Shown here piece by piece: positions 7,885 through 54,033 of a stretch of 64,000 nt of DNA (position 1 is its first letter; every line of letters begins with the position of its first letter). The notes beneath the pieces are model-generated. The model was not told where the DNA came from, searched no databases, and saw only the letters and a program-made list of their open reading frames with translations. A program made the position numbers and the translations under genes. Source of the stretch: a virus. The DNA is taken from the IMG/VR virus record IMGVR_UViG_3300045988_096244; one strand, written 5' to 3'.

Positions 7885-8412
7885 ATGAAACTCAATAGCA
7901 ATATCAAAGGTTTTCCTTTATACCATGTCACTAAATATGGAAAGGTATATAATATAAAGCGCAGTCGTGAAGTAACCATACATCCACACTATCGTACCGG
8001 TAGAAATATAGTTCATCTGTACTCTAATGGGAAAAGGTATAATCTGAAAGTATACAGGTTAGTAGCCGAGGCCTATATACCTAATCCGGAAAATAAGCCC
8101 TGTGTATGTCATAAGGATAACGACAAGTCTAACGATGGAGTAGAGAATTTATACTGGGGTACGTACAAAGAGAATTCTCAGCAGATGGTTAGAGAGGGTA
8201 GAAGTACAAAGGGCCAACACCGCAAAGGTATTAAACAACCGAGATGTTTCAGAAATCCTCGTTCAGTACTCACTAAAGTTAGATATCAGACTTTATTAAA
8301 ATGTATAGGTGATAAGACTAAACTAAAAGCTTTAGTTAAAGCTTGGGGTATATCAACACGCAGTATGAATAGATATGTACATAAAATAAAGACTGGGTAT
8401 TATGAAGCTTAA
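7885..8412 (+). CDS. HNH homing endonuclease (HNH_3 / NUMOD4-like), paralog 1
   Basis: LVAEAYIPNPENKPCVCHKDNDKSNDGVENLYWGTYKENSQQ is a His-Me finger core. The gene is wedged between the helicase and primase genes. Three paralogs occur elsewhere in the window. Confidence 0.75.
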   Translation: MKLNSNIKGFPLYHVTKYGKVYNIKRSREVTIHPHYRTGRNIVHLYSNGKRYNLKVYRLVAEAYIPNPENKPCVCHKDNDKSNDGVENLYWGTYKENSQQMVREGRSTKGQHRKGIKQPRCFRNPRSVLTKVRYQTLLKCIGDKTKLKALVKAWGISTRSMNRYVHKIKTGYYEA

Positions 8413-12754: not shown

Positions 12755-13330
12755 ATGGTTCAATTAGAGTTTACAAAGATTCGAGAGGTTAAATCCCCTA
12801 ACCGAGCAAATGACGGGGATGCCGGATTGGATTTCTACATCCCTCAGTTATCTGACCAAGATATTCTTAAGGTTGGAGAGAAAGGTGAAAATGACTTTTC
12901 TGGTATCAATCGGAAGATGTTTGGTAAAGGTTACATCAAACTGAAAGCATTGGGTACTGAAGATGTATATGTAGCAATTAAACCAGGTGGAAGACTTCTC
13001 ATTCCTTCTGGTATAAAGGTACTTATCAATCCAAAAGAGTCCATGCTCATGGCAGCAAATAAATCCGGGATTGCAACCAAAGAGGGTTTATCATTTACTG
13101 CCGAGATAGTGGATAGTCCATATACTGGTGAAATGCACATCGGTATTCATAACGGTTCCCCCGAAGAGGTTTATATTCCTCTGAACCAAAACAAGAAGAT
13201 AATGCAGTTTATACATGTACCAATTATACTTTCAAACCCGGTAGAGATTACCAATGAAGAGTATGACGAGAAAGCCAAGAATTGGGGAACTCGAGGGGAT
13301 AAGGGATTCGGTGCTCACGATAATAAGTAA
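12755..13330 (+). CDS. dut: dUTPase (trimeric dUTPase/dCTP deaminase fold)
   Basis: GDAGLDFY, LIPSGI, NKSGIATK, VDSPYTGEM and the C-terminal RGDKGFGAHD correspond by eye to dUTPase motifs I-V. Confidence 0.75.
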   Translation: MVQLEFTKIREVKSPNRANDGDAGLDFYIPQLSDQDILKVGEKGENDFSGINRKMFGKGYIKLKALGTEDVYVAIKPGGRLLIPSGIKVLINPKESMLMAANKSGIATKEGLSFTAEIVDSPYTGEMHIGIHNGSPEEVYIPLNQNKKIMQFIHVPIILSNPVEITNEEYDEKAKNWGTRGDKGFGAHDNK

Positions 13331-13335
13331 AAACC

Positions 13336-14241
13336 ATGGATAGCAGAGACATTAAAGAAGAACCAAAAAACATAGAGGGTAACAAATATCTCGAGGAGAT
13401 ATACTCTATGCAAAAGAACCTCTTATCTGGTTATATGGGTATAGAGGGACTACCACAGTATCCCATAGATATCAATACAAAAGCTTCTCAAACCTTACTC
13501 AAGGACTTCACTGCACGGGTAATAGAGGAGTTATCAGAGGGATACGAATCTTTTCAAGCAGTGGATGGTATCATGCAGGACAGTCACCACAAGATTATGG
13601 CCGGTGATGACCTGGTATACATTGAACTGCTTAATCACCTTCAGAATGCCAATGAGGAAAATGCCGATGCAGTACATTTCTTCGTTGAGTTGCTGATATA
13701 TGCTAACATTCAACCCGATGATATCAAGGCATACATGGTGAAGTGGGTAAGGGATAACAAATGCGAACAGAGTACGGTAGATTACTTTAACTCTATACGG
13801 AATGATATCCTAAATACTGCTCAATCCCTTGGAGTGAAGTGGTTGATGAATGAGAGAGATATAGAGGTAATCTTTGACAGCAACTCAACCAACTTATTGA
13901 AGTGGTATGAAGAGAAAGACTCTGAAACTTTCCCTGAGTACAATGATAAGTTACTGAAAGGTGGTCATAAGTATAACCACGAAAACTATGCTCTTCAATA
14001 TCCCTACATATTGTGGAAGATAACTCACCACCTTAATATAGCCAGGAATTTCCTGAAGAACAAACCTTGGAAACAATCTCAGGTAATGACTCAGGAGTTA
14101 AAGTATCAGGCTGAGTTGGTGAAGGCTTTCATATACTTCTGTGGTTATCTTGGATGGATAGGAATGGATTCTAAGGAAGTGTTCTATATTTACTTCAAGA
14201 AAAATCACATAAACCTGTTCCGCCAAAAATCTAAGTATTAG
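13336..14241 (+). CDS. all-alpha NTP pyrophosphohydrolase-like protein (MazG / dimeric dUTPase / dCTPase-like)
   Basis: By eye, ARVIEELSEGYES and EENADAVHFFVELLIYA resemble the paired acidic metal-binding helices of the all-alpha NTP-PPase superfamily. Confidence 0.35.
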   Translation: MDSRDIKEEPKNIEGNKYLEEIYSMQKNLLSGYMGIEGLPQYPIDINTKASQTLLKDFTARVIEELSEGYESFQAVDGIMQDSHHKIMAGDDLVYIELLNHLQNANEENADAVHFFVELLIYANIQPDDIKAYMVKWVRDNKCEQSTVDYFNSIRNDILNTAQSLGVKWLMNERDIEVIFDSNSTNLLKWYEEKDSETFPEYNDKLLKGGHKYNHENYALQYPYILWKITHHLNIARNFLKNKPWKQSQVMTQELKYQAELVKAFIYFCGYLGWIGMDSKEVFYIYFKKNHINLFRQKSKY

Positions 14242-14242
14242 T

Positions 14243-15232
14243 ATGAATCTTATAAAAACTAAGAGCCCAATAGAGGCTTGGGAGAAGATACTCGAAAACT
14301 TCTTAATCAAGAAGACCGAGTGGTTCTGTGAAGGAGTTGGTTACAATCTAACCGACTCTCTATTCACTTATGACTTAATGGTAGAGATAGTAGAAGCTAA
14401 GTTCGACCCAAACTTCGACTTCGGTAAGATGTTTGGGTACACCATGACAAAGTGGACAGGTTTAATTACCAACTACTTGGATTTGGATGTACTTGACCAA
14501 GCTAAGTTGATGATAAGGAAGTTAGAAGAGAATAAGACCGTAAACAGGAATTATCACATAGGCTTCCATTTTGCCGATAATCACGGCAGCGGTAAGGGAT
14601 GTTTGGTGGGCGGTATATTCTCTCGTAAGATAGGGATTGAAAATCCCGAGATAACCGTGATACTTCGCTCATCAGAGGTGGTTACACGATTGCCAATAGA
14701 TATTCTCCTATTCTGTCGTATGGGACAGTATATCTACGGTCATGATAACTTCTCGCTAAAATTAGTTATCAAGGCTGCTTGGGCAAATGATACTACAATC
14801 TTGTTGTATCAGAACCGAAAAGATATCAAGGAGTTCTTGAAAGAGAACTGTGATGATGAAGCTCGTAGAAAAAAGATACGTAAGTCTCTCAAGAAACTAA
14901 TGACAAGTGATGAAGCTGTTTATAAAACATACGGTAACAGTTTCAGAGCTTTCAAAGTATTAAGGAAAGACTTGGGATATAATCAGAAGTCCATGTTGGC
15001 ATCATCTTTAGAGATTGGTGATTGGGATGGTATTCCTTTACCAGAAGTATGCCCATCTATACTTAAGCGAAACATGATAAAGAAGACATACTTAAAGTTC
15101 ACTGAAAAGTACGGACTTAAGTTAAAGCTTGAAGAAAGTGGGGAAAGGAAAAAGAAGAAACTAATCTCGTTCTCCTCATCAGACGAAGATGATATGGATG
15201 ATAATGAATCAACTGTAGAATCAGATGAGTAG
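14243..15232 (+). CDS. thymidylate-synthase-fold protein, paralog A (divergent, acidic Ser/Asp/Glu C-terminal tail)
   Basis: By-eye alignment to ThyA: [27 protein letters not shown] vs [36 protein letters not shown] vs [26 protein letters not shown] vs QRSCDVFLGLPFNIA. The ThyA H-x-Y motif is not evident. Confidence 0.35.
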   Translation: [329 protein letters not shown]

Positions 15233-16013
15233 AGTAAAGGTAAAGAATAACCTGTTAATGTTCAAGAACAGCATGAAAGCTTGGGAAGGACTTAACAGGT
15301 TATTCCTGTTCAATACGCTTGGTTTGGACATAGAAAGAATTGGTAAAGCTCAATACATAAATGATTTAGTCATTAGTATTAAAGAACCTCTGGTAGACCC
15401 CGAATTTGATTTTGGTAGGCATTTCAATTATACCATGTCAAAGTGGAAGTCATTAGTGGCTAACTATGTTGATGAGAATAGTCTTTCATTACTGAGGCTG
15501 GATGTTATAGAGGCTATCAACAATAGAAAGATATTCAACATAGGCTATCAGTTTAATAATAAACATGCCCACGGAAAGAATTGCCTATTATCCATGACTG
15601 TATCTAAAAAAGTGGGTATGGATAACCCCATGATAACAGTATTCATGAGGGCATCCGAGGTTACTAAAAGGCTGATATGTGACCTACTCCTTATTCAACG
15701 TATGGGAGAATATATATTCGGATATGGGCAGAAGTTTCATGTATCAATACATTTCAGTCAGATATTCAATGATGATACTGTACTTCTTATGTACCATGCC
15801 CATGAAGACTTACTTAAGTTGAGTGATAAGCTTGGTATATACGACGGTAATTGGTATGACCGATTGAAGTATCTGCTTGAGGTGGACCCTGACAAAATAA
15901 AATATAAGGTACATAAAAGGGCAATAAAAGTATTAAGACCTGAGCTTTTCAAATATCCTAAGACCTTAGCTAAAGACTGTACTCTTGGGAGTGAAGACTG
16001 GCTACCGTTCTAA
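15225..16013 (+). CDS. thymidylate-synthase-fold protein, paralog B
   Basis: Clear paralog of 14243..15232 (VDPEFDFGRHFNYTMSKWKSLVANYVD; HGKNCLLSMTVS; FMRASEVTKRLICDLLLIQRMGEYIFG), with an 8-nt overlap. Confidence 0.35.
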   Translation: MSRVKVKNNLLMFKNSMKAWEGLNRLFLFNTLGLDIERIGKAQYINDLVISIKEPLVDPEFDFGRHFNYTMSKWKSLVANYVDENSLSLLRLDVIEAINNRKIFNIGYQFNNKHAHGKNCLLSMTVSKKVGMDNPMITVFMRASEVTKRLICDLLLIQRMGEYIFGYGQKFHVSIHFSQIFNDDTVLLMYHAHEDLLKLSDKLGIYDGNWYDRLKYLLEVDPDKIKYKVHKRAIKVLRPELFKYPKTLAKDCTLGSEDWLPF

Positions 16014-16049
16014 TATAGGGAAGTCTATTGAATTGCAAATACCAATGCA

Positions 16050-16229
16050 ATGAATATAGAAGTAAAGAAATCCCCCTATACAAGTAAGCTTGGTGGAGAT
16101 ATTGATATTACCTTTTCTACTGATAGCGGATGGTTGTTCAATACTGTAGTCAATATAAGTAGGAAGGATTTAAGACAACTCAAAAGAAAGATAAGGAGGT
16201 ATCTCCATGAAACAATAGAAGAAAAGTAA
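16050..16229 (+). CDS. small hypothetical protein (59 aa)
   Basis: Below the track cutoff. Sequence MNIEVKKSPYTSKLGGDIDITFSTDSGWLFNTVVNISRKDLRQLKRKIRRYLHETIEEK. A paralogous open frame lies immediately downstream. Confidence 0.4.
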   Translation: MNIEVKKSPYTSKLGGDIDITFSTDSGWLFNTVVNISRKDLRQLKRKIRRYLHETIEEK

Positions 16230-16407
16230 TCCATACTTTGGTGTAGAAATATCCAGGAGCGAGTATAAAAATAGGTATGATAGAGATATTGAATTATCTA
16301 TATCTACTAACGGTCATCACTGGATAGGATTGCCAAATATGAATATCCAGGACCTGAAAGAACTACGAAAATCTATAAGAAAATATATTAAAGAAAACAA
16401 ACAATGA
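16219..16407 (+). pseudogene. start-less paralog of the 16050 gene (open frame without ATG/GTG/TTG near its 5' end)
   Basis: The frame is open from 16219 and encodes ...EISRSEYKNRYDRDIELSISTNGHHWIGLPNMNIQDLKELRKSIRKYIKENKQ, which aligns with the upstream protein. The first ATG is only 22 codons before the stop. Its TGA overlaps the ATG of 16404 (ATGA). Confidence 0.35.
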
Positions 16408-17174
16408 GAATATATTCGAACCCCTATGAGTTAATGTCAGAGACGGCAAGAAACTTATGGGAAATGGGTAATGAGGTAAAACCCCGTACCTATCAAAACA
16501 AGGTAATAGAAGGCAATGATGACTTCATTACAAAGGAACTCATCTGTGAGCAGTACTGTTTAACTCACATGGAAGACCCAGCTGCACTTTTTGTATTCAC
16601 TAAGTCCAAAGATTGGGCAGAGGCAGAATTCGAAGAGAGAGTATGCGGTAGGATGGAAAATCCAGGTAAAGCATGGGAACTCCGTAAAAACGTTTGGGAA
16701 GAGTTTTTAGTTGATGGGTTCTTTGACTATACCTATGCAGAACGTATGAACGAGTCAGTGTTATACAAAGGTAAGGCATTCTCAAAACTCGAAGCAGTAA
16801 TAGAATTGTTAAGGAATGACAATGATACAAGAAAAGCCATATTAAATATATATGGTGAAGTCGGTTACCATGAGGACTGCGATTCAAACTATCTCGGTGG
16901 AGAAAAGAGAATACCGTGCTCCATGTATTACGACTTCCTCATCCGAGAGAATGCCCGAGGAGAAAAGCAACTCAATATATGTTATCACCAAAGGTCTTCT
17001 GATTTTGTAACCCACTTCGGTAATGATGTTTACCTGGCATGGAGACTCATGGAATATGTAGCTAGCGAGGTGGGAATCAAGCCTGGATATCTCTATCATA
17101 CTATTGATAGTTTGCATAGTTATAAAAAAGACTGGGTGAAACTGAAGACCTCAATCCAAACCGAATTGAGATAA
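16404..17174 (+). CDS. thymidylate synthase superfamily enzyme (ThyA / pyrimidine hydroxymethylase-like)
   Basis: DTRKAILNIYG (RRxIxSAWN-like), RIPCSMYYDF (catalytic P-C), YHQRSSDFVTHFGNDVYLA (QRSxDxxLGxPFNI-like) and IDSLHSY (DxHxY-like). Confidence 0.65.
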   Translation: MRIYSNPYELMSETARNLWEMGNEVKPRTYQNKVIEGNDDFITKELICEQYCLTHMEDPAALFVFTKSKDWAEAEFEERVCGRMENPGKAWELRKNVWEEFLVDGFFDYTYAERMNESVLYKGKAFSKLEAVIELLRNDNDTRKAILNIYGEVGYHEDCDSNYLGGEKRIPCSMYYDFLIRENARGEKQLNICYHQRSSDFVTHFGNDVYLAWRLMEYVASEVGIKPGYLYHTIDSLHSYKKDWVKLKTSIQTELR

Positions 17175-17259
17175 CCTCAGAAGGTAACGGTATAATTGGA
17201 GGGGATTGTTCTTTTCTGTAACCTTGAGATTAGTAGTAAAGTTACCGTTACCTTCACTC

Positions 17260-17333
<74 letters not shown>

Positions 17334-17425
17334 CAAGATGAATCTTTACTTTGCGCTGTGGACCGCGAGTCCTGATTCACCCCGGGTATCAGACTGTAGG
17401 GATATAGACTGATACCCATTTTTAT

Positions 17426-17500
17426 ACGGAAGTAGCACAGTCCGGTTAGTGTACTTGCTTTGGGAGCAAGGGGTCGCAGGTTCGAATCCTGTCTTCCGTA
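17426..17500 (+). tRNA. tRNA-Pro (anticodon TGG)
   Basis: Acceptor acggaag/cttccgt, anticodon stem cttgc/gcaag with 7-nt loop ttTGGga, T arm gcaggttcgaatcctgt. Confidence 0.85.
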
Positions 17501-17655
17501 CAAGGGCTATATGCTGGGTCATAACCGGAGATACGACCTCCAGCTAGCAATGGGCAATAACCCGGTACGAGATACCAAAAGCTCATAATTAAAGTCGAAG
17601 GCTATAGCTCTAGGAGATGAGCGAAGAACAGTACCTCATCTCCCCTTTTGTAAAG

Positions 17656-17738
17656 GCTCGGATGGAGAAATAGGTAAACTCATCAGATTTAAGCTCTGAC
17701 GGTCATTGACCTTGCGGGTTCGATTCCCGCTCCGAGTA
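17656..17738 (+). tRNA. tRNA-Leu (anticodon TAA), class II with long variable arm
   Basis: Acceptor gctcgga/tccgagt (G1-U72 wobble), anticodon stem tcaga/tctga with loop ttTAAgc, variable arm ggtcattgacc, T arm gcgggttcgattcccgc. Confidence 0.8.
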
Positions 17739-17753
17739 CAAAATACCCTTAAC

Positions 17754-18089
17754 ATGACAATCACATTCAAAGATTACCCTTGCGGTACAATTTCATTAGG
17801 TACTTCAGTAACAATAATACCTAATTCATATCAGATTAAATCAATCCAGGATATGGAAGATATAATCAACCGTTCTAGAGAAGAAGTAAATAAAAGTCCA
17901 GTATTCCATACGTTTGCAATAAATAAAAGAACTACAGCTGGTATGATTATTGAATGGCGAGCCCATAATATGCTATATGCACTGCATATAAAAAGGAATA
18001 GGACTCGAACGGTTGACCTGGATATAAATGAACCATGGTACCGTAAAGTAGGATATTTAATATTATCAACACTATATCTAAGATGGTAG
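17754..18089 (+). CDS. hypothetical protein
   Basis: Track ORF 17706..18089 trimmed to ATG 17754 (MTITFKDYP...), because the upstream codons overlap tRNA-Leu. Confidence 0.4.
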   Translation: MTITFKDYPCGTISLGTSVTIIPNSYQIKSIQDMEDIINRSREEVNKSPVFHTFAINKRTTAGMIIEWRAHNMLYALHIKRNRTRTVDLDINEPWYRKVGYLILSTLYLRW

Positions 18090-18691
18090 AAATTACAAAC
18101 GTAGATGTGTATGACTTAGAGAAGTCAATTATAGCATGTAGAAATGCTATGCGTACAGAACCAGTATTCCCAGTAGACATGGATGCTTGGGGACATCCAA
18201 TTTATGAACAGAAAGAATGGGATGATTCATTTAAGAGGGCCGTTAACTTGGCCAAATCCCCATCTAACAGTGGTCACCCTAATTTCTTAACCGGAATAAG
18301 GGTATCATTTGACATCCTATACCCAAACTACTTTTCACCCGAGTTACAACGATATCATTGGATAGATATTGTAACCTCATCTTCAAAGATGCACAGGCTC
18401 GGTGAGATTGTAAAGAAGGAGTCATTCAATAAGTATGTAACCCCGGAGGTAATAGCTATAGTTCAGGACTTGGCAAATAAGTTCATAGAAGACCCAAGCT
18501 ATGAGAATCGTATCAAGCTGCTGAGTAATTGCCCTCTCGGGATAGAATTATTCATGAGGGTAAGTACCAACTATATGCAACTCCGGAATATATACCATCA
18601 GAGGAAAGATCATCGTCTGAGAGAGGATTGGGGAGCATTCTGTAAGATGATTCAAGAGTTACCCTTCTTCGAAGAGTTCATAAACAAATAA
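18083..18691 (+). CDS. ThyX-like (flavin-dependent thymidylate synthase family) protein, divergent
   Basis: By eye, SGHPNFLTGIRVSFDILYPNYFSPELQRYHWIDIVTSSSKMH parallels ThyX H.S.lEh..ftF.i.gvSR....ql.RHR..S...S.RY. The C-terminal NYMQLRNIYHQR...EDW parallels the ThyX tail. The RHR signature reads RYH here. Confidence 0.4.
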   Translation: MVEITNVDVYDLEKSIIACRNAMRTEPVFPVDMDAWGHPIYEQKEWDDSFKRAVNLAKSPSNSGHPNFLTGIRVSFDILYPNYFSPELQRYHWIDIVTSSSKMHRLGEIVKKESFNKYVTPEVIAIVQDLANKFIEDPSYENRIKLLSNCPLGIELFMRVSTNYMQLRNIYHQRKDHRLREDWGAFCKMIQELPFFEEFINK

Positions 18692-19063: not shown

Positions 19064-20632
19064 ATGGAGTCAAGATATGCTATACTAAAGAGTTTCTCAC
19101 AAGTCAAGCGGCTTGTGAAAGCTTGTTTAAGAACTGGCCTAGCTTCCGTCGACTTCGAGACAAATGCTGAAGGTATCTATAACAAATCTTTCAAACCAAC
19201 CATCCTATCAGTAACTTTTCAGGTAGGTTCTGGTGTATCAATCCCTTTATGTCATCATGAATATAACAACCCTCATTGGAAACGTTGGTTAAAGTATTTT
19301 GGTAGGCATGTGATTGAAAATCCTAAAATAACTAAAGTAGGATGGAATCTGAAGTTTGACCTTCAGATATTCGAGTTATTTGGGATATATGTTAGAGGTA
19401 CTGTTCTGGACGGAATGCTTATGAAGTATCTCCTAAATGAGGAGAAACCTAATGACCTGAAATCAATGGTTAGAAGGTATCTACCAGAACACGGAGATTA
19501 CGAAAAGTCGGATAAGTTTGATAAGATACCATGGGACAAGAAACCATTGGAACCCTTATGCAAATACGGTTGCCAGGATACGGATTATACCTTAAGATTA
19601 TCTATGTTCTTTGAGAGCAAGTTAATTGAGATAGGTATGTATCCATTATTTAGGCATTTGATAATGCCAGCATCCAGGGTACTCCAACATGCAGAGAAAA
19701 CTGGGTTATACCTTGATAGGGAATTCAATCAGGAATTGCTTAAATCCTACAAGCCAAAGATTGACCAAGCAACTGCTAATTGCTTGAATCTTCCCAGAGT
19801 AAAGAAATTCTCTAGATGGCTTACCGAACAGAGAATAAGCAAATACCTGGAGTCCATAGAAAGTGAACTTGAAGATATGGATTATAGAGACCCTGCAAAT
19901 AAGAGGAAGATAGCAAGTAGGGAACAAAAGATATCCAATATCAGGGCTGGAGTATTTACAACTAAGAAAGAACTTGAATTAACTCGAGAAGTAAACTTGG
20001 GCAGTCCTATTGATTTACCTTTATTATTGTACTCTAAAAAGGGATTCAACTTCCCGGTTATCAAGTATACTAAGGATAAGAAAACAAATAGGGATACTGA
20101 TAAACCCAGTACCGATGAAGACACATTGGTAGAACTTCGGTTAACGGTTAAAGACCCTGAAAGTCCCAAAGCAATCTTCCTGGATAATCTTCTCGAGTTG
20201 AGAGGGTTAAAGAAAATGTATACAACCTATATTGAGGGATGGCATGATAAAGTTCAGGATGATGACAGGATTCACGGGCAATTCAAAATCATTGGTACTA
20301 CTTCTGGCCGTTTAAGTTGCATAAGTGGAGATACTAAAGTATTAACCCAGTATGGAGAAATACCCATTATAGATATTAAAGATTGGATTGGTGAAGGGTT
20401 GTGTGCCATGACTAAAGAGGGGTGGCAATTAATAGAAAACTTCATATATAAGGGTGTTAATGATATGTATGAAGTAACACTTGAGGATGGTACTTCTATT
20501 CAATGTACTTTAGACCATAAGTTTATAACCAATCAGGGGACTAAAAGATTAGGGGAAATTTACAATAAATACCGAAATACTATTGATTCTAAAGTTAAAC
20601 TTTTAAGATATGTCCCAGACCACGAACAATAG
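19064..20632 (+). CDS. family-A DNA polymerase, N-terminal fragment (3'-5' exonuclease + N-part of the polymerase domain) fused to the split-intein N half
   Basis: Exo I motif VDFETN. The sequence runs to ...IIGTTSGRLS, then Cys at 20318 starts CISGDTKVL...TLDHKF (Hint blocks A and B). The frame stops 104 codons after that Cys. Confidence 0.8.
   Translation: MESRYAILKSFSQVKRLVKACLRTGLASVDFETNAEGIYNKSFKPTILSVTFQVGSGVSIPLCHHEYNNPHWKRWLKYFGRHVIENPKITKVGWNLKFDLQIFELFGIYVRGTVLDGMLMKYLLNEEKPNDLKSMVRRYLPEHGDYEKSDKFDKIPWDKKPLEPLCKYGCQDTDYTLRLSMFFESKLIEIGMYPLFRHLIMPASRVLQHAEKTGLYLDREFNQELLKSYKPKIDQATANCLNLPRVKKFSRWLTEQRISKYLESIESELEDMDYRDPANKRKIASREQKISNIRAGVFTTKKELELTREVNLGSPIDLPLLLYSKKGFNFPVIKYTKDKKTNRDTDKPSTDEDTLVELRLTVKDPESPKAIFLDNLLELRGLKKMYTTYIEGWHDKVQDDDRIHGQFKIIGTTSGRLSCISGDTKVLTQYGEIPIIDIKDWIGEGLCAMTKEGWQLIENFIYKGVNDMYEVTLEDGTSIQCTLDHKFITNQGTKRLGEIYNKYRNTIDSKVKLLRYVPDHEQ
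20318..20629 (+). mobile_element. split intein, N-terminal half (IntN, 104 aa)
   Basis: CISGDTKVLTQYGEIPIIDIKDW (block A) and CTLDHKFITNQG (block B, TxxH), terminated by the TAG at 20630. Confidence 0.75.
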
Positions 20633-21590
20633 GCAAAAGGTATTTGAAGATAAATCTACTAGGGGTCCAAGGAGAAAATTAAAGCTAATAATAGAGGATG
20701 GTAAAAGGTATATAAAGAAAGAAGATCTTTTACATTACTTCTTTCAAGAGAATTGGAATATAGAAGACTTCAATTATCATTTTGGTATTGGCCATAGAAT
20801 AGTGAGAGGTTCTCTATATAAATGGTTTACTAGAGAGGAGATAGAGGAATCCCATAGAAAGAAGATTGCTAATAAACAAAGGGGTAGTAACAATTCTAAT
20901 AGGGTTAATTGGTATAAGCCTCGTAAGCTTATACCTTTATTGGATTTAGAGGAAGCTATTAAAAAATCTACTTGTAAACGGGATTTGAAAGAAAGATTAC
21001 AATTAACTACTTGGGAATTGTCTTCTATACAGCAATTCTATAATTTTAAGCTCCCTAATAAATCTTCTTTACTCAATACTAAACTCCAGTATTCTCTTTC
21101 TAAAGAAGATGTAAAACTCTTATGTAAAGTTATTACAGGAATGCAATTGGAAGACCTATTTTTCTCTAATACTCCTCAAGCTATCTACAAAATAGATTGT
21201 CTTGTTTGGGAACTTAAGAAGATTAACCGCTCTCTTAGAAGAGCTTTTAGGAAACCTATAGTAGCTCAGGGTATTAAGTTTTCTACTAATTTGATAGAAT
21301 ATAAATTCCACAAAGCTTTAGAAAAAATGGGTATAGAACATGAAATACAGTATTACATACCCGAACATAATATACACCTAGACTTTTTAATACAAGGTCA
21401 CTACAACTTAGAATTAGATGGAAATTTACATGAAAAAGAAGCAGATATGGATAGAGACTATGTTCTCAAATCCCTTGGCTATAAAGTTATACGATTAGAT
21501 TTAAAAACCCTTGGTATCACTAGATTTTCAAAAGAAAAGGAGGTAAGAAAATGTATAAAGAAGTTGGTATTACCCAAGTTAAATTCGTAG
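20610..21590 (+). CDS. free-standing Vsr/DUF559-like (PD-(D/E)XK) endonuclease lodged between the intein halves
   Basis: It is in a different phase from both polymerase fragments and overlaps them by 23 and 40 nt. By eye, the C-terminus IEHEIQYYIPEHNIHLDFLIQGHYNLELDGNLHEKEADMDRDYVLKSLGYKVIRLD matches the DUF559/Vsr pattern (..Df....vvE.DG..H....D..R...L...G..vlR). Confidence 0.65.
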   Translation: MSQTTNNRQKVFEDKSTRGPRRKLKLIIEDGKRYIKKEDLLHYFFQENWNIEDFNYHFGIGHRIVRGSLYKWFTREEIEESHRKKIANKQRGSNNSNRVNWYKPRKLIPLLDLEEAIKKSTCKRDLKERLQLTTWELSSIQQFYNFKLPNKSSLLNTKLQYSLSKEDVKLLCKVITGMQLEDLFFSNTPQAIYKIDCLVWELKKINRSLRRAFRKPIVAQGIKFSTNLIEYKFHKALEKMGIEHEIQYYIPEHNIHLDFLIQGHYNLELDGNLHEKEADMDRDYVLKSLGYKVIRLDLKTLGITRFSKEKEVRKCIKKLVLPKLNS

Positions 21591-21664
21591 GTAGAAATGG
21601 GGTATATGATTTATCAGTTATGAACTGTCATCAATTTGTGGCTAATAATATCTTAAATCACAAT
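21551..21664 (+). mobile_element. split intein, C-terminal half (IntC, 38 aa)
   Basis: MYKEVGITQVKFVGRNGVYDLSVMNCHQFVANNILNHN ends in the H-N splice junction and is followed by Ser. It has its own ATG, preceded by AAGGAGGT at 21537-21544. Confidence 0.75.
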
Positions 21665-22699
21665 TCTAGTGAACCTAACCTTCAGCAAATACCTAAAACC
21701 TCCGTAGATGCTAACATAAAGAAACAGTTAGTAGCTCCTAAAGGAAAGTTATATATGGCACTTGACTACTCTCAGGCAGAGTTAAGAATCATGGCTCACC
21801 TTTCCGGGGATGAAACTTATCTCGAGGCTTTTGCAAAGGGTCAGGACCCTCACCTTGCTATTGCAGCAAAGAAGTATGGTGTATCGTACGATGAAGCAAA
21901 CCAAGCTTATAGTGACGAGCAACATCCAGATTACAAGGTTTGGAAGAACAGGAGAAAGCAGGCAAAGCAGATATGTTTTGGTATTATCTATGGTATTCAA
22001 AAGAAACTACTTGCAGTTAAACTGTCTGACCCAAAAGCGGGTATCATTGTAACACCCGATGAAGCTCAACAGCAATTGAATGAGTTCTTCCAGGAACACC
22101 CCAAGATTAAGAAGTTCATGATTAACCAGGAGAAGGTACTGATTGAGCATGGATATATTAAATCTCTGTTTGGTAGGAAGAGAAGGTTACCACAAGTATA
22201 TTCTGACAATGAGCAAGAGGCAGCATACGCAGTAAGATTATCAGTTAACATGCCATGTCAATCAGCTGCATCTGATATGACTCTGTTTGCATCCATACTC
22301 AATTATTGGAAAATACGACAAGGTATACTTCCACCACTGCTTGAAACCTGTACAGTACATGATGCCGTTTATTACTTGGCAGACCCTGAGTATATAAATA
22401 TATTCACGGTGTACAATATATGGGAGACTTGCCGTAACCCAAGTACAAAAGAGTATTTCAAATTTGAAATCAACGATGTAGATATGTCAATGGACTTTAC
22501 TATCGGACGTTCGATGGCTGAGGAGTTGCCATATATACCTGGATATGACTATAGAAAAATGCTTCAACCCGATTTTAATGTGGAGAAGTATTTGGAAGAA
22601 CACCGTAAGTGGAAAGACTTATCCATCAAGGAGTTCCCCAAGAAGTTCCCCGAATACTTTAAGAAGGATTACTCATGGAGAAAGGAAAAGGTGGTATAG
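21551..22699 (+). CDS. family-A DNA polymerase, C-terminal fragment (IntC + palm/fingers)
   Basis: After IntC come SSEPNLQQIP, LDYSQAELRIMAHLSGD (motif A), RRKQAKQICFGIIYG (motif B) and VHDAVYY (motif C). It is in the same phase as 19064..20632. Confidence 0.8.
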   Translation: MYKEVGITQVKFVGRNGVYDLSVMNCHQFVANNILNHNSSEPNLQQIPKTSVDANIKKQLVAPKGKLYMALDYSQAELRIMAHLSGDETYLEAFAKGQDPHLAIAAKKYGVSYDEANQAYSDEQHPDYKVWKNRRKQAKQICFGIIYGIQKKLLAVKLSDPKAGIIVTPDEAQQQLNEFFQEHPKIKKFMINQEKVLIEHGYIKSLFGRKRRLPQVYSDNEQEAAYAVRLSVNMPCQSAASDMTLFASILNYWKIRQGILPPLLETCTVHDAVYYLADPEYINIFTVYNIWETCRNPSTKEYFKFEINDVDMSMDFTIGRSMAEELPYIPGYDYRKMLQPDFNVEKYLEEHRKWKDLSIKEFPKKFPEYFKKDYSWRKEKVV

Positions 22700-23136: not shown

Positions 23137-23660
23137 CCATCCCTATTTAATAGGGTATCATATTTCTAATGTAGGTAAAATATACAGTAGAGTAAAGGGT
23201 TATTGGAGAGAATTAACTCCTCGTATCAATAGAGAGGGATATCTTAGGATAAAATTAAATGGTAAGCAATACTCAATACATAAATTAGTTGCTGAAGCTT
23301 ATATACCTAATTCGGAAAATAAGCCCCTGTGTATGTCATAAGGATAACAATAAGCTAAACAATTCGGTTGATAACTTGTATTGGGGAACACAAAAGGAGA
23401 ACTTAGAACAAATGATTAAAGACGGTAGGAGTTTGAAAGGTAGAAGAAACCCTATGTGGAAAAATCATTATAATTCTGGTTATGGTAGATATGGAGAAAA
23501 AGCAACAGCTAGTAAACTATCAAACAAAGATAGAATAAGTATAGTTAAAAGTCTAAACTCGGGTATAAGTATAGATACTTTATCCAAAAGATACAAAGTA
23601 TCAAGAGCCTGTATTAGAAGTCAAATAAGAATAGTGTCAAACTTACGTAAACAACAATAA
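23120..23660 (+). pseudogene. HNH homing endonuclease paralog 2, split by a +1 frameshift
   Basis: ORFs 23120..23341 and 23289..23660 together rebuild ...HKLVAEAYIPNSENKP|CVCHKDNNKLNNSVDNLYWGTQKEN. The break is a CCCC run (23324-23327) where paralog 1 has CCC. Confidence 0.7.
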
Positions 23661-27003: not shown

Positions 27004-27649
27004 ATATCAAATTATGTTTACAGGTGTTTCCGGAGTAGGGAAAACAACCATTGCAAAGGAAGTATCGGAAATGTTGAAGATACCCTTTATATCTGGTTCA
27101 TACTCTGACCTGGTACCAGAAACAAAAGACATGCCCCACGCTGACATGATTCAGCAGGATGCAAAGACAGTATTCATGCAGGATATGCAGGTACTCAATC
27201 TTCGTAACAAAGCCTTTCGAGGGGAGGATAACTTTGTAACTGACAGGTCATACTTTGACTCTGCAGCATACTTCATCAATAAGTTATCTCATAGGTTGGC
27301 AGAGTGTGACCTGGACCATGCTATAGACTTATGCAAAATGCTACTTGGTCAACAGTGTACTCACTTGATATTCATACCATTCTCCTCAAGCTTTTTCAAG
27401 GACTGGGTAACCGAGGATAACGGGAAACGAGTACTGTCAAAGTACTATCAGTTCCAAGTTTCTCAGGTTATGTATGGATTACTTGACCTGTGGGGGTACA
27501 AGCCAGATTCCAAAGTAATGCAAGTCGTGGATGGAATACCAAGTACTGGTACTCTGGAAATAATGGGTTACAAGGTAAAGGTTCTCATATTAGATGAGAT
27601 GAACTACGAAAAGAGAAAGCATCTAATAAGGAAATTTCTTCAGTTATGA
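26990..27649 (+). CDS. P-loop NTPase, nucleotide-kinase-like
   Basis: An N-terminal Walker A (FTGVSGVGKTTIAKEV) at the very start of a roughly 220-aa protein, as in (d)NMP kinases. Specificity unknown. Confidence 0.4.
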   Translation: MYNGKYQIMFTGVSGVGKTTIAKEVSEMLKIPFISGSYSDLVPETKDMPHADMIQQDAKTVFMQDMQVLNLRNKAFRGEDNFVTDRSYFDSAAYFINKLSHRLAECDLDHAIDLCKMLLGQQCTHLIFIPFSSSFFKDWVTEDNGKRVLSKYYQFQVSQVMYGLLDLWGYKPDSKVMQVVDGIPSTGTLEIMGYKVKVLILDEMNYEKRKHLIRKFLQL

Positions 27650-28962
27650 AGGTAGATAAGGTGGATAATATTAAAGACTTCCCGGGATATTATATTTCTC
27701 GGGAAGGTTTTTTATATAGTAGGTATGATAAGGTAGGCCGTTTAACAGACACTTATAAGAGAAATAAGACATATGTAAGGTCTAACGGTTATGTACAAGT
27801 GGTATTGAAAATACGAAAGGAGAATAGATTACGTAGAGTATATATACATAGGTTAGTAGCTGAAACTTATATCCCTAATCCATATAATAATCCCTGTGTA
27901 GGACATAGGGATAATAATAGAGAGAATAACTCTGTAGAGAACCTATATTGGTGTACTCATAAGGAGAATACTCAACAGTGTATAGATGACGGTCGTATGA
28001 ACTTTAGGCCTAAACTACAATTCTTATTATTTTCAGACTTACACATATCAGACTATAAGAAGTTTCCAAGTAGAGAGCATAGTGGATTTAGAGTATTGGA
28101 TATTATATCTCAACGATGTGAAAAGCTTGGAGTACCCGCAGTACATGTGGGTGATTTGATACATAGACCTGAGGTTATAAGCAATGAGTTATTGTACAGG
28201 TTAATAAAAGAGTTTAATCAATTATCTCATCGTAAGTGGAAATTATATTCTATATCGGGTAATCATTGTATAAGTACTCGTAGTGAAATAGGCCATAAAC
28301 CAATTTCATGGGATAGAACTTTATCTATGATATACCCATGGTTTAAGTGTATAGATTACAAAAGAGTTCATGTAGATAAATGTTATATATATGGAATACC
28401 TTATATAGACCATAATATAGGTTTATCTAAATACATATCAGAACTAAAGCTTACTGGCAGTAAAAGAAGTAAACACATACTCCTATTACATACTGACTAT
28501 CCTGGGGCAAAGGATACGGACGGTACAGTAGTAAACAGTGTAGAGAACCTGAATATAAATTCTATATCAAAGTTTGACTTAACTCTTTGTGGGCATATAC
28601 ACAAACCCCAGAGGTTAGGTAAGAAGGTGTATATGGTAGGTTCACCATATCAACAACGTAGAACTGATAAGAATTGTGAATTGGGCTACTGGGAAGTATA
28701 CTCAGATATGTCACTTAAATTTATACCGTTAAATGATTTTCCTAAATTTGTGGATGTATCATCAGAGGATGAAATTAAAGATGACGGCAATTATTATACT
28801 GTTGTTGCTAGCAAGTCTCGGGTTGTGGCGGTGGAAGATACCCCGCAAATAACTCGGGAACTTACTAAGAAATCCATGGTACGCAGATATATGAAAGCCA
28901 AAGGCATAAAAGACAAAGAAAAGAAGGCCACATTATTAAAGGTAATAAAGGAGGCAGAATGA
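27646..28962 (+). CDS. sbcD: SbcD/Mre11 nuclease with an in-frame N-terminal truncated HNH_3 endonuclease module (paralog 3)
   Basis: aa 1-117 carry HRLVAETYIPNPYNNPCVGHRDNNRENNSVENLYWCTHKEN. From the internal ATG 27997 (MNFRPKLQFLLFSDLHISD) the calcineurin-like motifs follow: DLH, HVGDLIH, SGNHC, LLLHTD, CGHIHKP. Confidence 0.7.
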   Translation: MKVDKVDNIKDFPGYYISREGFLYSRYDKVGRLTDTYKRNKTYVRSNGYVQVVLKIRKENRLRRVYIHRLVAETYIPNPYNNPCVGHRDNNRENNSVENLYWCTHKENTQQCIDDGRMNFRPKLQFLLFSDLHISDYKKFPSREHSGFRVLDIISQRCEKLGVPAVHVGDLIHRPEVISNELLYRLIKEFNQLSHRKWKLYSISGNHCISTRSEIGHKPISWDRTLSMIYPWFKCIDYKRVHVDKCYIYGIPYIDHNIGLSKYISELKLTGSKRSKHILLLHTDYPGAKDTDGTVVNSVENLNINSISKFDLTLCGHIHKPQRLGKKVYMVGSPYQQRRTDKNCELGYWEVYSDMSLKFIPLNDFPKFVDVSSEDEIKDDGNYYTVVASKSRVVAVEDTPQITRELTKKSMVRRYMKAKGIKDKEKKATLLKVIKEAE

Positions 28963-52400: not shown

Positions 52401-52964
52401 TTATTCAACTTCCTTTAAGTATTCAGCTATAATAGGATCTTCACCTCGTATAATCTTACGTAAAGGACGGTAACTTTTAACTTTGAATTTAGATTGAAGT
52501 TGTTTAGTAGTCCAATTAGGATGTTTTTGATAGAATTTATAAATCTTTATCTTGAGTTCGTTGCTATATTTAGATTTTGGATGTTTATCTCCGAATACTC
52601 TATAATAAGGGTTTTTATCTCCTCGTTTATCCCCCGGCTTCATTCTACCCTCTCTCACAGCTTTTTCAGTATTTTCTTTGGGTGTACACCAATATAGGTT
52701 ACTTACCCTATTATTTAGGGGGTTATTATCCTTATGACCCACATAAGGTTTATTATATTTGTTAGGTATATGAACTTTTGCTACTAACCTTGAAACCGAA
52801 CGTATTCCTCCTCTAAAATAAAAATAAGCTCGACGGTATTTATGATTCTTGGATAAACTGTGGTATATCCTTAACTGTACCCAATTATTATTCCTTAACT
52901 CAAAGATATCACCGTCAACACTTACATATAATCCGGGCATCCAGGGAACATTCTCTTTCATCAT
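52401..52964 (-). CDS. HNH homing endonuclease (HNH_3), paralog 4
   Basis: RLVAKVHIPNKYNKPYVGHKDNNPLNNRVSNLYWCTPKENTEKAVREGR aligns with the other three paralogs. Confidence 0.7.
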   Translation of the reverse strand: MMKENVPWMPGLYVSVDGDIFELRNNNWVQLRIYHSLSKNHKYRRAYFYFRGGIRSVSRLVAKVHIPNKYNKPYVGHKDNNPLNNRVSNLYWCTPKENTEKAVREGRMKPGDKRGDKNPYYRVFGDKHPKSKYSNELKIKIYKFYQKHPNWTTKQLQSKFKVKSYRPLRKIIRGEDPIIAEYLKEVE

Positions 52965-53040: not shown

Positions 53041-54033
53041 ATGAATGTTTTAGGTGTCTGTGGAGCTCAAGGAGCTCTGTTATTTGAGTTTAAAGAGCAT
53101 CTTGTAGCCAATGTAGAGCCAAGAGCTGTGTTTCACTCCAAAAAAGAAGAGCAATGGAAGCTCAATTTTGGCAATATACCCTTTGTAAGGAGCCTTGAAG
53201 AGGTCAAAAACACCAAAATTGACCTAATACTCGGTTCTCCCTCATGTGGTCATAGCTCTGTATTCTCCTATTCGAGGAAAAAATCCTTGGGAAAACCCCG
53301 AGAAGATGCCACCCTTAATTTATATCTTTCTAGTATAAAGAAGTTCAAACCAGCAATATTTATGCTGGAGAACCTCCCTAAGCTTCTAGATTTTATTCCT
53401 ATCGGGGAATGGGAGCATAATTTACCCGATTATAAATTTATAGTTCACTGTCACTCCGTTTCGGTATTCGGTAATTCCCAACAAAGTAGGAAACGTATGG
53501 TATTGATAGGGGTGCGTAAAGATTCTAAAGTTAATCCCGACCTCTTTACTCATACTTTCAAAGTAAGTAAGTTGAAGAATCTATGTGAACTAAAGAAAGA
53601 AGTACGTAGAGATATAAATTACAGAGAAGCGGATGATAAGAAGTTGGCAATGTACCATTATGCAGATAAGTCAAAAACTACTCTAACTGTAGCTCAAGTG
53701 AGAAAGTTATGGAGAACTGAGTTTAAGAATGATTATAAATGGCCAATGAGAACTCAGAAGATGAAGACTCTTCCAGGAGTATACCGTAATAGAAAAAGAA
53801 GTTATCCCTTAACCGTTAGACCATCTTCAAGGCAATTCAATCCTCATGGAAGGATTATGGGCCTTGAAGAGTATAGGGTTATAATGGGCTTTCCTAAAAA
53901 CTTTAAGGTATACTTCGATAAGGCTAATCCAACCTACTGGTTAAATAAGGGAAGGAATACCTTAACCAAGGGGACTGTATATGAAATCTCACTATGGATT
54001 AAGACTTGTCTGAAGAAAGCGGATCTGATTTGA
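53041..54033 (+). CDS. DNA (cytosine-5)-methyltransferase-like protein, divergent motifs
   Basis: By eye: motif IV-like LGSPSCGHS (SPSC instead of PPC), motif VI ENLPKL, motif VIII QQSRKRMVLIG, motif IX-like LEEYRVIMGFPKNFKV. Motif I is atypical (LGVCGAQG). Confidence 0.55.
   Translation: MNVLGVCGAQGALLFEFKEHLVANVEPRAVFHSKKEEQWKLNFGNIPFVRSLEEVKNTKIDLILGSPSCGHSSVFSYSRKKSLGKPREDATLNLYLSSIKKFKPAIFMLENLPKLLDFIPIGEWEHNLPDYKFIVHCHSVSVFGNSQQSRKRMVLIGVRKDSKVNPDLFTHTFKVSKLKNLCELKKEVRRDINYREADDKKLAMYHYADKSKTTLTVAQVRKLWRTEFKNDYKWPMRTQKMKTLPGVYRNRKRSYPLTVRPSSRQFNPHGRIMGLEEYRVIMGFPKNFKVYFDKANPTYWLNKGRNTLTKGTVYEISLWIKTCLKKADLI

Follow-up and report, generated by a model that had tools for sequence, protein, structure and literature searches.

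Between positions 12,755 and 18,691 of a 64,000-nucleotide stretch of viral DNA, IMG/VR record IMGVR_UViG_3300045988_096244 (the window, by which we mean this whole stretch), lies a cluster of genes that deal with nucleotides. It encodes a trimeric dUTPase (P1), an all-alpha nucleoside triphosphate (NTP) pyrophosphatase (P2), two tandem paralogs with a divergent thymidylate synthase (TS) fold (P3 and P4), a better-conserved TS homolog (P6) and a protein with the fold of ThyX (P8), listed in Table 1. An earlier reading made from the letters alone (the sequence-only reading) had picked out these genes and proposed that they form a T4-like pathway for replacing or modifying cytosine. Its by-eye observations have all been borne out, and its interpretation is partly supported.

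A check of the open reading frames (ORFs) confirmed that all the named genes are on the + strand, where that reading had placed them. They are packed tightly or overlap, save for a gap of 390 nucleotides between P4 and P6, and are embedded in the replication module of the phage. Genes for a primase, an SNF2-type helicase and a DnaB-type helicase lie 5' of the cluster, and genes for an A-family DNA polymerase (PolA), SSB, RecA, a 5'-3' exonuclease, a P-loop kinase and Mre11/SbcC-like proteins lie 3' of it, while the window ends in tail and lysis genes on one side and in terminase and capsid genes on the other. The nearest GenBank record is an unannotated human-faecal phage (~80% nucleotide identity), and the P4 protein of the window recurs without any difference in several IMG/VR contigs of 47-74 kb.

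Table 1. Coordinates of the features discussed (aa, amino acids; L numbers are our labels for related loci)
Feature	Position	Strand	Basis
P1, trimeric dUTPase, 191 aa	12755..13330	+	PF00692, phrog_135, NCBIfam Dut
P2, all-alpha NTP pyrophosphatase, 301 aa	13336..14241	+	PF08761; T4 gp56 alignment
P3, TS-fold paralog with basic patch and acidic Ser/Asp/Glu tail, 329 aa	14243..15232	+	P4 homology
P4, TS-fold paralog, 262 aa	15225..16013	+	AlphaFold, Foldseek, hhalign
Small ORF in the P4-P6 gap, 59 aa	16050..16229	+	ORF list only; no family match
P6, dCMP-type TS homolog, 256 aa	16404..17174	+	PF00303; residue mapping
tRNA-Met	17260-17334	+	ARAGORN
tRNA-Pro	17426-17501	+	ARAGORN
tRNA-Leu	17656-17739	+	ARAGORN
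ORF co-inserted with P8, ~113-127 aa	17706..18089	+	no family match
P8, ThyX-fold protein, unnamed family phrog_6721	18083..18691	+	AlphaFold and PDB structure matches
P-loop nucleotide-kinase-like protein, 219 aa	26990..27649	+	weak AAA_18, Cytidylate_kin2 and dTMP-kinase matches
C5-methyltransferase-like protein	53041-54033		Pfam match, E 2.9e-16; atypical motifs
Canonical ThyA in five relatives	L074 3668-4639; L077 7017-7982; L078 7026-7982; L080 6768-7745; L083 6000-6917		
P4-family gene of phage Muddy	NC_022054.2 36049-36915		
Cassette of phage Tolls	MW862988.1 gp44-52		
Cassette of phage Serbin	NC_074756.1 gp48-53		

Two hydrolases and a dCMP-type TS homolog

P1 is the trimeric dUTPase that it was first taken for, with a match to PF00692 well above the cut-off (35.4 bits against 22, E 1e-8) and another to phrog_135 (E 2.6e-18); its match to NCBIfam Dut (E 1.6e-15) falls under the equivalog cut-off. 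It occurs in most of the 79 related IMG/VR loci that we recovered with a P4 profile. P2 likewise deserves its initial description as a MazG/dimeric-dUTPase-like NTP pyrophosphatase. Its C-terminal part matches PF08761 (dUTPase_2; 28.3 bits against a cut-off of 22.9, E 2.5e-6), its acidic metal-binding motifs read E65-L-S-E (ExxE) and E108-N-A-D (ExxD), its C-terminus aligns with the T4 dCTPase gp56 (30% over 70 amino acids, E 2e-6), and in each of the cassettes examined the NTPase in front of the P4-family gene is a homolog of P2. To judge from these similarities, P2 is a member of the dimeric-dUTPase/T4 gp56 dCTPase family. A candidate substrate is dCTP.

P6 is the TS-family enzyme with a conserved Pro-Cys that had been singled out at the start: it matches PF00303 with 57.9 bits (cut-off 24.3, E 1.1e-15) and its catalytic motif is I-P-C172. 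We mapped its residues on E. coli ThyA, T4 gp42, RB69 gp48 and SPO1 gp29 (the E. coli ThyA reference sequence agrees with the PDB alignments). In ThyA numbering, P6 keeps Tyr94, Arg126, Cys146, Arg166, Ser167, Asp169, His207 and Tyr209, has His173, and differs from canonical ThyA in carrying Asp for Asn177, Ser for His147 and Arg for Leu143. The first of these differences is Asp208 of P6 itself, in the 'GND' that had been aligned by eye, and correctly, with the Asn of ThyA. The signature, including an invariant Arg143, is identical in 78 of 78 related genes, and the partner TS of distant cassettes has, in every case read, Arg143, Ser or Thr147, Asp169, His173 and Asp177. P6 lies far under the cut-offs of all NCBIfam TS equivalogs, and its best PDB sequence match is the entry of the HY126 hydroxylase, 9iqu.

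The residue at position 143 has been reported to correlate with the type of product (PMC13326640). Of the features of T4-type hydroxymethylases P6 has Asp177, and position 143 is the invariant Arg rather than an acidic residue. We rejected this position as a reliable predictor of methylation versus hydroxymethylation, for Xp12, a phage with 5-methylcytosine (5mC), has Asn there and not Leu. P6 was also rejected as a 5-hydroxy-dCMP synthase, as it is without the change from Asp169 to Asn. Nor is it the dTMP synthase, because five relatives carry a canonical ThyA (Asn177, His147, Leu or Val143, ThyA-like C-terminus) besides the P6-type gene. This ThyA is inserted among the TS-fold genes, of which there are then up to four in tandem.

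A divergent branch of the TS fold

P3 and P4 are plainly paralogous (33% identity, E 9e-44) and match nothing meaningful in Pfam, NCBIfam or the PDB sequences, whether searched as single sequences or as profiles, and none of 45 diverse members of their family matches PF00303 or any TS model. Since no Pfam model exists for it, the P3/P4 protein is invisible to domain-based screens. Its fold is apparent from the AlphaFold model of P4 (predicted local distance difference test score, pLDDT, 91): all ten significant PDB matches (E <= 0.001) are in the TS family, as are nearly all of the top 50 matches listed, with a Foldseek probability of 1.0 to TS-family structures. The best of them are the dCMP hydroxylase of phage HY126 (9iqu, E 3.5e-6, the top match), MilA and the T4 dCMP hydroxymethylase, at template modelling (TM) scores of 0.4-0.5, and a library of viral structures gives uncharacterised homologs first and TS enzymes next. 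Two hhalign comparisons of P3/P4 with TS (probability 57-75%, E 1e-4 to 2.6e-5) return the same register, and the TS of phage Maco2 matches the hidden Markov model of the P4 family (E 6e-6).

In this register Cys120 of P4 falls on Cys146 of ThyA, Arg142 on Arg166, Glu145 on Asp169 and Asp153 on Asn177, and the equivalent of position 169 is Glu or Asp in P3-type proteins. Because both comparisons agree, the assignments of Asp in 'PID' and 'ICD' made by the sequence-only reading hold. Its two tandem TS-fold paralogs are just that on structural comparison. Asp at position 177, the catalytic Cys and Arg166 are therefore common to P3, P4 and P6. Tyr81 (which we assign, by its position, to ThyA Tyr94), Cys120, Arg142 and Asp153 are invariant across members that are ~20% identical and span hosts from Actinobacteria to Bacteroidota; within the 79 loci they are kept in 145/145 family genes, including 66/66 of P3 type. 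The Ser/Asp/Glu tail of P3, which had also been noticed at once, is real and is kept down to 50% identity, preceded by the basic patch. The C-terminal extension is basic and acidic in P3-type proteins, basic in single-copy relatives and lost in P4-type proteins.

A profile search of 1.84 billion representative proteins found only 254 clusters of the P4 family. In nearly every context read its genes adjoin a TS of the Arg143/His173/Asp177 subtype, and in many phages the stop codon of the P4-family gene overlaps or abuts the start codon of the TS gene. Model and sequence comparisons together indicate that P3/P4 form a TS-fold branch of their own, unnamed and highly divergent, that accompanies the P6-type TS, and whose gene is duplicated in the lineage of the window. 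This family appears to be undescribed: we found no account of it as a conserved cassette member in the searchable literature. The label 'pyrimidine hmase synthase', given to members by a few GenBank annotators, shows that the resemblance to the TS fold has been noticed informally before.

A cassette conserved across phages

The NTPase, P4-family, TS and PolA genes are all present in 78/79 loci, bar a few loci cut at a contig end. The dominant order is SNF2 helicase, small ORF, dUTPase, P2, P3-type gene, P4-type gene, P6-type TS and PolA; it is found in 58 loci, of which seven have P8 between TS and PolA, and in another four that a contig end cuts short. A single P4-family gene is present in 11 loci. 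It had been thought abnormal for a phage to have four members of TS families, which is overstated, since phages of this family normally have three TS-fold genes, and four occur in some relatives. The 'extra' genes with this fold are real, and far from being an unexplained oddity they are an integral part of a conserved cassette.

The order NTPase, P4-family gene, TS is kept in distant metagenomic phages, including carriers of Pol III alpha or of a UDG-PolA fusion. Cultured phages usually present the order thymidylate-kinase-like gene, PF08761 NTPase, 'hypothetical protein', TS, dCMP-family deaminase and PolA, as in Gordonia phage Tolls, Serratia phage Serbin, Streptomyces phage KimJongPhill and Mycobacteroides phage Maco2, and the hosts of such phages belong to Gordonia, Mycobacterium, Streptomyces, Serratia, Pseudomonas and Clostridium. 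We read the full cassette in Tolls, Serbin and Maco2, and the P4-family gene in Muddy; the Maco2 region is almost identical to those of Mycobacterium phages FF47 and Muddy. Gordonia phage Emalyn and Pseudomonas phage PMBT14 are further carriers. Clostridium perfringens phage CPAS-15 has a shorter cassette, whose P4-family gene is mislabelled as a glycosyltransferase. By tblastn the P4 family is present in 85 actinophage and 18 proteobacterial phage records, nearly always as 'hypothetical'. In the searchable literature we found no report of the cassette in Flandersviridae-like gut phages or in Muddy-type mycobacteriophages.

Two genes at the edges of the cassette vary with lineage. Outside the lineage of the window a deaminase gene is nearly always found directly 3' of TS, and there is none in the window or in most of its relatives. 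Other cassettes have a thymidylate-kinase gene directly 5' of the NTPase. The window encodes, further 3', the P-loop protein that the sequence-only reading had also listed, with orthologs at the same position in four relatives (30-41% identity), and this protein is a candidate kinase for a modified deoxynucleoside monophosphate (dNMP). It was rejected as an ortholog of the kinase of other cassettes, the similarity being weak (E 1e-4). As far as sequence and gene order tell, the core set consists of P2, the P3/P4-family gene, P6 and the P-loop kinase, which matches the cassette of cultured phages; P8 and the C5-methyltransferase are outside the conserved module.

A ThyX-fold gene in a variable slot

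P8 had been called ThyX-like, with an RHR signature that reads RYH, and this name holds for the fold only, because neither Pfam nor profile comparison links P8 to ThyX. The model (pLDDT 92.7) finds ThyX in 50/50 of the PDB matches listed (E ~3e-6, TM 0.55-0.67). Searches of Pfam, NCBIfam and the PDB sequences with P8, as a single sequence or a profile, gave nothing meaningful, and hhalign of its family against seven ThyX sequences (six from phage records and that of T. maritima) gave a probability of 0.2%, which is no signal. The motif is there in degenerate form: residues 89-92 read Q-R-Y-H, RYHxxDxxxSSSK stands against RHRxxSxxxxSxR of ThyX, and in the family RHR becomes R-Y-(H/N/S/V), with an invariant Lys in place of Arg90 of ThyX. 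From the fold match and, by eye, a 12-residue offset with equal spacing, His65, Arg90, Ser99-101 and Arg174 of P8 would be the counterparts of His53, Arg78, Ser88 and Arg174 in T. maritima.

P8 is present in only 7/79 related loci. The gap between TS and PolA is filled by the same trio of tRNA genes in 46 of the 75 loci where it is readable, and the contents of this slot in relatives are three tRNAs only, P8 and a small ORF, IspD and LicD, an HNH endonuclease, or (in basal relatives) a deaminase. A two-gene insertion, P8 plus the ORF at 17706, fits the difference in gap size between loci with and without P8. The ATG at 17751 is the probable real start of that ORF, because the listed TTG start overlaps tRNA-Leu; the ORF adjoins P8 homologs in just 2/69 other loci.

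The P8 family is itself large and well conserved (>2,600 matches), and is found, with no TS gene nearby, in phages of Clostridium, Clostridioides and Fusobacterium. In 69 unrelated loci a TS homolog is near the P8-family gene just once, and the commonest neighbour is a dUTPase, within 3 kb on the same strand in 19/68 other loci. This neighbourhood is compatible with use of dUMP by the family, for example as an alternative thymidylate synthase, but its ThyX motif is degenerate. We rejected P8 as a component of the TS pathway, because it is a lineage-specific insertion and its family lives elsewhere without TS; P8 is optional cargo in a variable slot, and a role in dTMP supply is conceivable. 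In Fusobacterium phage Fnu1 (L009 5732-7561) a P8 homolog lies directly 3' of a DNA cytosine methyltransferase gene, a pairing that did not recur in any of the 69 IMG/VR loci tested.

The same slot contains, at ~10040-11605 in L052-L063 and L076, genes for an IspD-like cytidylyltransferase and a LicD-like phosphotransferase. IspD/LicD have been suggested to modify teichoic acid (Benler et al., PMC8008677); that beside the cassette they decorate modified DNA is speculation on our part.

Probable replacement of cytosine before replication

Several published findings bear on what such a cassette does. TS homologs with Asp177 and a residue other than His147 are enriched in cytosine-modified phage contigs (PMC8670742), and neighbourhoods of TS-Asp177, deaminase, PRA-PH NTPase and PolA typify modified contigs; of seven such TS enzymes that were assayed, five produced 5-methyl-dCMP (5mdCMP), and the deaminase converted 5mdCTP to dTTP (bioRxiv 10.1101/2024.12.05.627091). 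In gene content, the cassette of the window is of the neighbourhood type tied to cytosine-modified phage DNA (5mC or 5-hydroxymethylcytosine, 5hmC), a kind of pathway that is known. We therefore consider it rather probable that the cluster is the form taken in this phage family by a widespread cassette, one that exchanges deoxycytidine (dC) for a C5-modified dC before replication.

Building on the observed gene identities, folds, residue conservation and synteny, each catalytic step and the final base can be conjectured as follows: (i) P2 would hydrolyse dCTP to dCMP, which removes normal dCTP and supplies the substrate, (ii) P1 would keep dUTP out of DNA, (iii) P6, a folate-type TS homolog in which Asp177 would select cytosine, would add a one-carbon group to C5 of dCMP, giving 5-methyl-dCMP or 5-hydroxymethyl-dCMP, (iv) the P-loop kinase and host kinases would raise this product to the triphosphate and (v) the phage PolA would incorporate the modified dCTP. 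For P3/P4 we infer active enzymes that use a cytosine nucleotide by covalent catalysis, because the nucleophilic Cys, the phosphate-binding Arg, the cytosine-selecting Asp and the Tyr are all kept; they could perform a second C5 reaction, or be obligate partners of P6 or in complex with it. Bolder, and tentative, is the idea that P3/P4 are a new class of pyrimidine-C5 enzyme on the TS fold, which makes a novel cytosine derivative or is an obligatory subunit of the Arg143/His173/Asp177 TS.

A number of points weigh against replacement of cytosine. First and foremost, a search of the accessible literature yielded no nucleoside (LC-MS) or restriction data for the window phage or any cassette phage, and nothing on DNA modification for the nearest GenBank record, the Bacteroides phages with dCMP hydroxymethylase, the C. 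perfringens phages, the Gordonia phages or Muddy. Arg143 resembles neither the Leu found in methylating ThyA nor the Asp or Glu found in T4-type hydroxymethylases, and the sequence of P6 therefore does not reveal its product. No group-transfer enzyme, for example a glycosyltransferase, is recognisable in the window, and there is a DNA C5-methyltransferase-like protein, which would be pointless if every C were already modified at C5. As for P3/P4, the structural likeness of P4 to TS is modest (by its TM scores) and the profile-profile probability is no higher than the range given above; since there is no obvious equivalent of the Arg126/Arg127 pair, P3/P4 could be non-catalytic or bind something other than dCMP. 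Of the T4-like cytosine pathway first proposed, what stands is the gp56-like NTPase, the TS with Asp177 and non-His147, and the conserved kinase; what does not is the inclusion of the ThyX-fold gene and of the C5-methyltransferase.

The cluster might instead serve ordinary nucleotide supply, P6 methylating dCMP and deamination then yielding thymidine nucleotides that bypass dUMP, with P3/P4 and P8 in salvage and canonical bases in virion DNA. The dCMP-family deaminase that almost always comes directly after TS outside the window's lineage fits this, such deaminases can make dTTP from 5mdCTP (bioRxiv 10.1101/2024.12.05.627091), and a genome announcement (PMC10353413) calls the Gordonia genes 'thymine synthesis'. 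It is nonetheless decidedly unlikely. Because the window and most of its relatives are without a deaminase, a modified product would have no outlet except DNA; the published deaminase route coexists with full replacement by 5mC and is no substitute for it (bioRxiv 10.1101/2024.12.05.627091); and relatives with an added canonical ThyA still keep P6. A highly improbable alternative has P3/P4 as flavin-dependent dCMP 5-hydroxylases like RB69 gp48 and HY126 AfhB, the phage then making 5-hydroxycytosine derivatives. For this speaks 9iqu, which ranks first both in structure for P4 and among PDB sequences for P6. The diagnostic residue of 5-hydroxy-dCMP (5hodCMP) synthases is Asn at position 169 (PMC13326640), a position that is Asp in P6 and Glu or Asp in P3/P4, and no genes for sugar activation or glycosyl transfer were found in the window.

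P3/P4 might also be no enzymes at all, and act as degenerate TS-fold partners in structure or regulation: in a heterodimer with P6, as a tether to the replisome through the P3 tail, or as decoys that poison host TS dimers. TS enzymes are obligate dimers with residues shared across the interface, which suits such partners, as do the want of a clear Arg126/Arg127 pair and divergence past Pfam detection, the conserved basic-plus-acidic tail of P3-type proteins (of a kind used in protein docking) and the frequent translational coupling of P4-family and TS genes. A scaffold would hardly be expected to keep Tyr, Cys, Arg and Asp invariant at ~20% identity, which is typical of catalysis, and we think it unlikely that P3/P4 are such non-enzymes. 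Replacement of cytosine before replication remains the reading that we favour for the cluster.

Surroundings of the cluster

The atypical C5-methyltransferase that the sequence-only reading had added to the pathway is present as well. It has P-S-C for P-C, E-N-L for E-N-V and no FxGxG, and sits 35 kb off amid accessory genes; we found no link between it and the cassette.

The PolA gene of the window (19064-22699) is split into three ORFs, which encode (i) the exonuclease and the N-terminal part of the polymerase together with the N-terminal half of an intein, (ii) in a separate frame, a DUF559/endonuclease-like protein and (iii) the C-terminal intein half with the remaining polymerase. In near-identical relatives PolA is uninterrupted (762 amino acids), and the broken gene has the appearance of a split intein that comes with a free-standing homing endonuclease. 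A 777-amino acid ORF just 5' of the presumed head genes (55049-57382), probably the large terminase, also carries an intein, here with an HNH endonuclease domain, and the RecA of one relative (L012) bears an intein too. HNH endonuclease genes or domains occur at 7885-8412, 23289-23660, 27646-28962 and 52401-52964, one of the domains being fused to an Mre11-like phosphoesterase. These HNH genes and inteins suggest heavy traffic of homing elements in this genome.

Significance

Modified cytosines allow phages to escape restriction enzymes and some CRISPR systems, and they bias virome sequencing and methylation calls; enzymes of such pathways are already tools for methylation sequencing. The type of pathway is known, and what appears to be new is the P3/P4 family in the cassette and the cassette in these phage groups. 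If the cassette works as we suppose, non-canonical cytosine is present, and unreported, in many cultured phages and in a phage family that is very common in the human gut. If P3/P4 were a new C5 enzyme class or subunit, >100 cultured phages would have an uncharacterised DNA modification step, as would the abundant gut 'Flandersviridae'; among these cultured phages is Muddy, which has been used therapeutically against Mycobacterium abscessus. For the enzyme-like P3/P4 protein a direct test is at hand in the E. coli co-expression assay with T4 gp1 dNMP kinase and LC-MS of plasmid DNA that was used in PMC13326640 and bioRxiv 10.1101/2024.12.05.627091.

Comparison with known systems

The logic of the cassette is that of the T4 pathway to hydroxymethylcytosine (gp56 dCTPase, gp42 dCMP hydroxymethylase, gp1 dNMP kinase), and P2 is homologous to gp56. 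T4 gp42 shares Cys146, Arg166, Asp169 and Asp177 with P6 but has an acidic residue at 143, where P6 has Arg; T4 also has a glucosyltransferase, of which there is none in the window, and the T4 region read contains no P4-family gene. From the 5-hydroxy-dCMP synthases (RB69 gp48, DLP3 gp80 and HY126 AfhB; 9iqu/9iqc), which are nearest to P4 in structure and to P6 among PDB sequences and which share Asp177, the proteins of the window differ in that these synthases have the Asp169-to-Asn change and use flavin and O2, whereas P6, P3 and P4 are acidic at 169. P8 resembles ThyX (PF02511) in fold, and is set apart from it by the lack of Pfam or profile similarity and by its degenerate RHR motif.

Similar in neighbourhood are the 5mC type of Xanthomonas phage Xp12 and the MetaGPA neighbourhoods, in which TS-Asp177 also stands beside an all-alpha NTP pyrophosphatase and PolA; as in the latter, relatives of the window have a dCMP-family deaminase in the same slot. 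The Xp12 enzyme differs, with Asn143, Pro147 and Gly173 against Arg143, Ser/Thr147 and His173 here; the two flanking genes tested, gp60 and gp63, are not of the P4 family; and Xp12 has DHFR, which was not found in the window, and the window has no deaminase.

As a genome, the window is most readily compared with the gut Bacteroidales phages of the candidate family 'Flandersviridae', which infect Bacteroides and Parabacteroides and have the IspD + LicD pair as a hallmark (Benler et al. 2021, PMC8008677); IMGVR_UViG_3300045988_076639 is an example of a contig of this group. A term search of that text found none of 'thymidylate', 'dUTPase' and 'hypermodification'. The layout and size of the genome match those of 'Flandersviridae', and relatives of the window carry the IspD + LicD insertion in their replication module.

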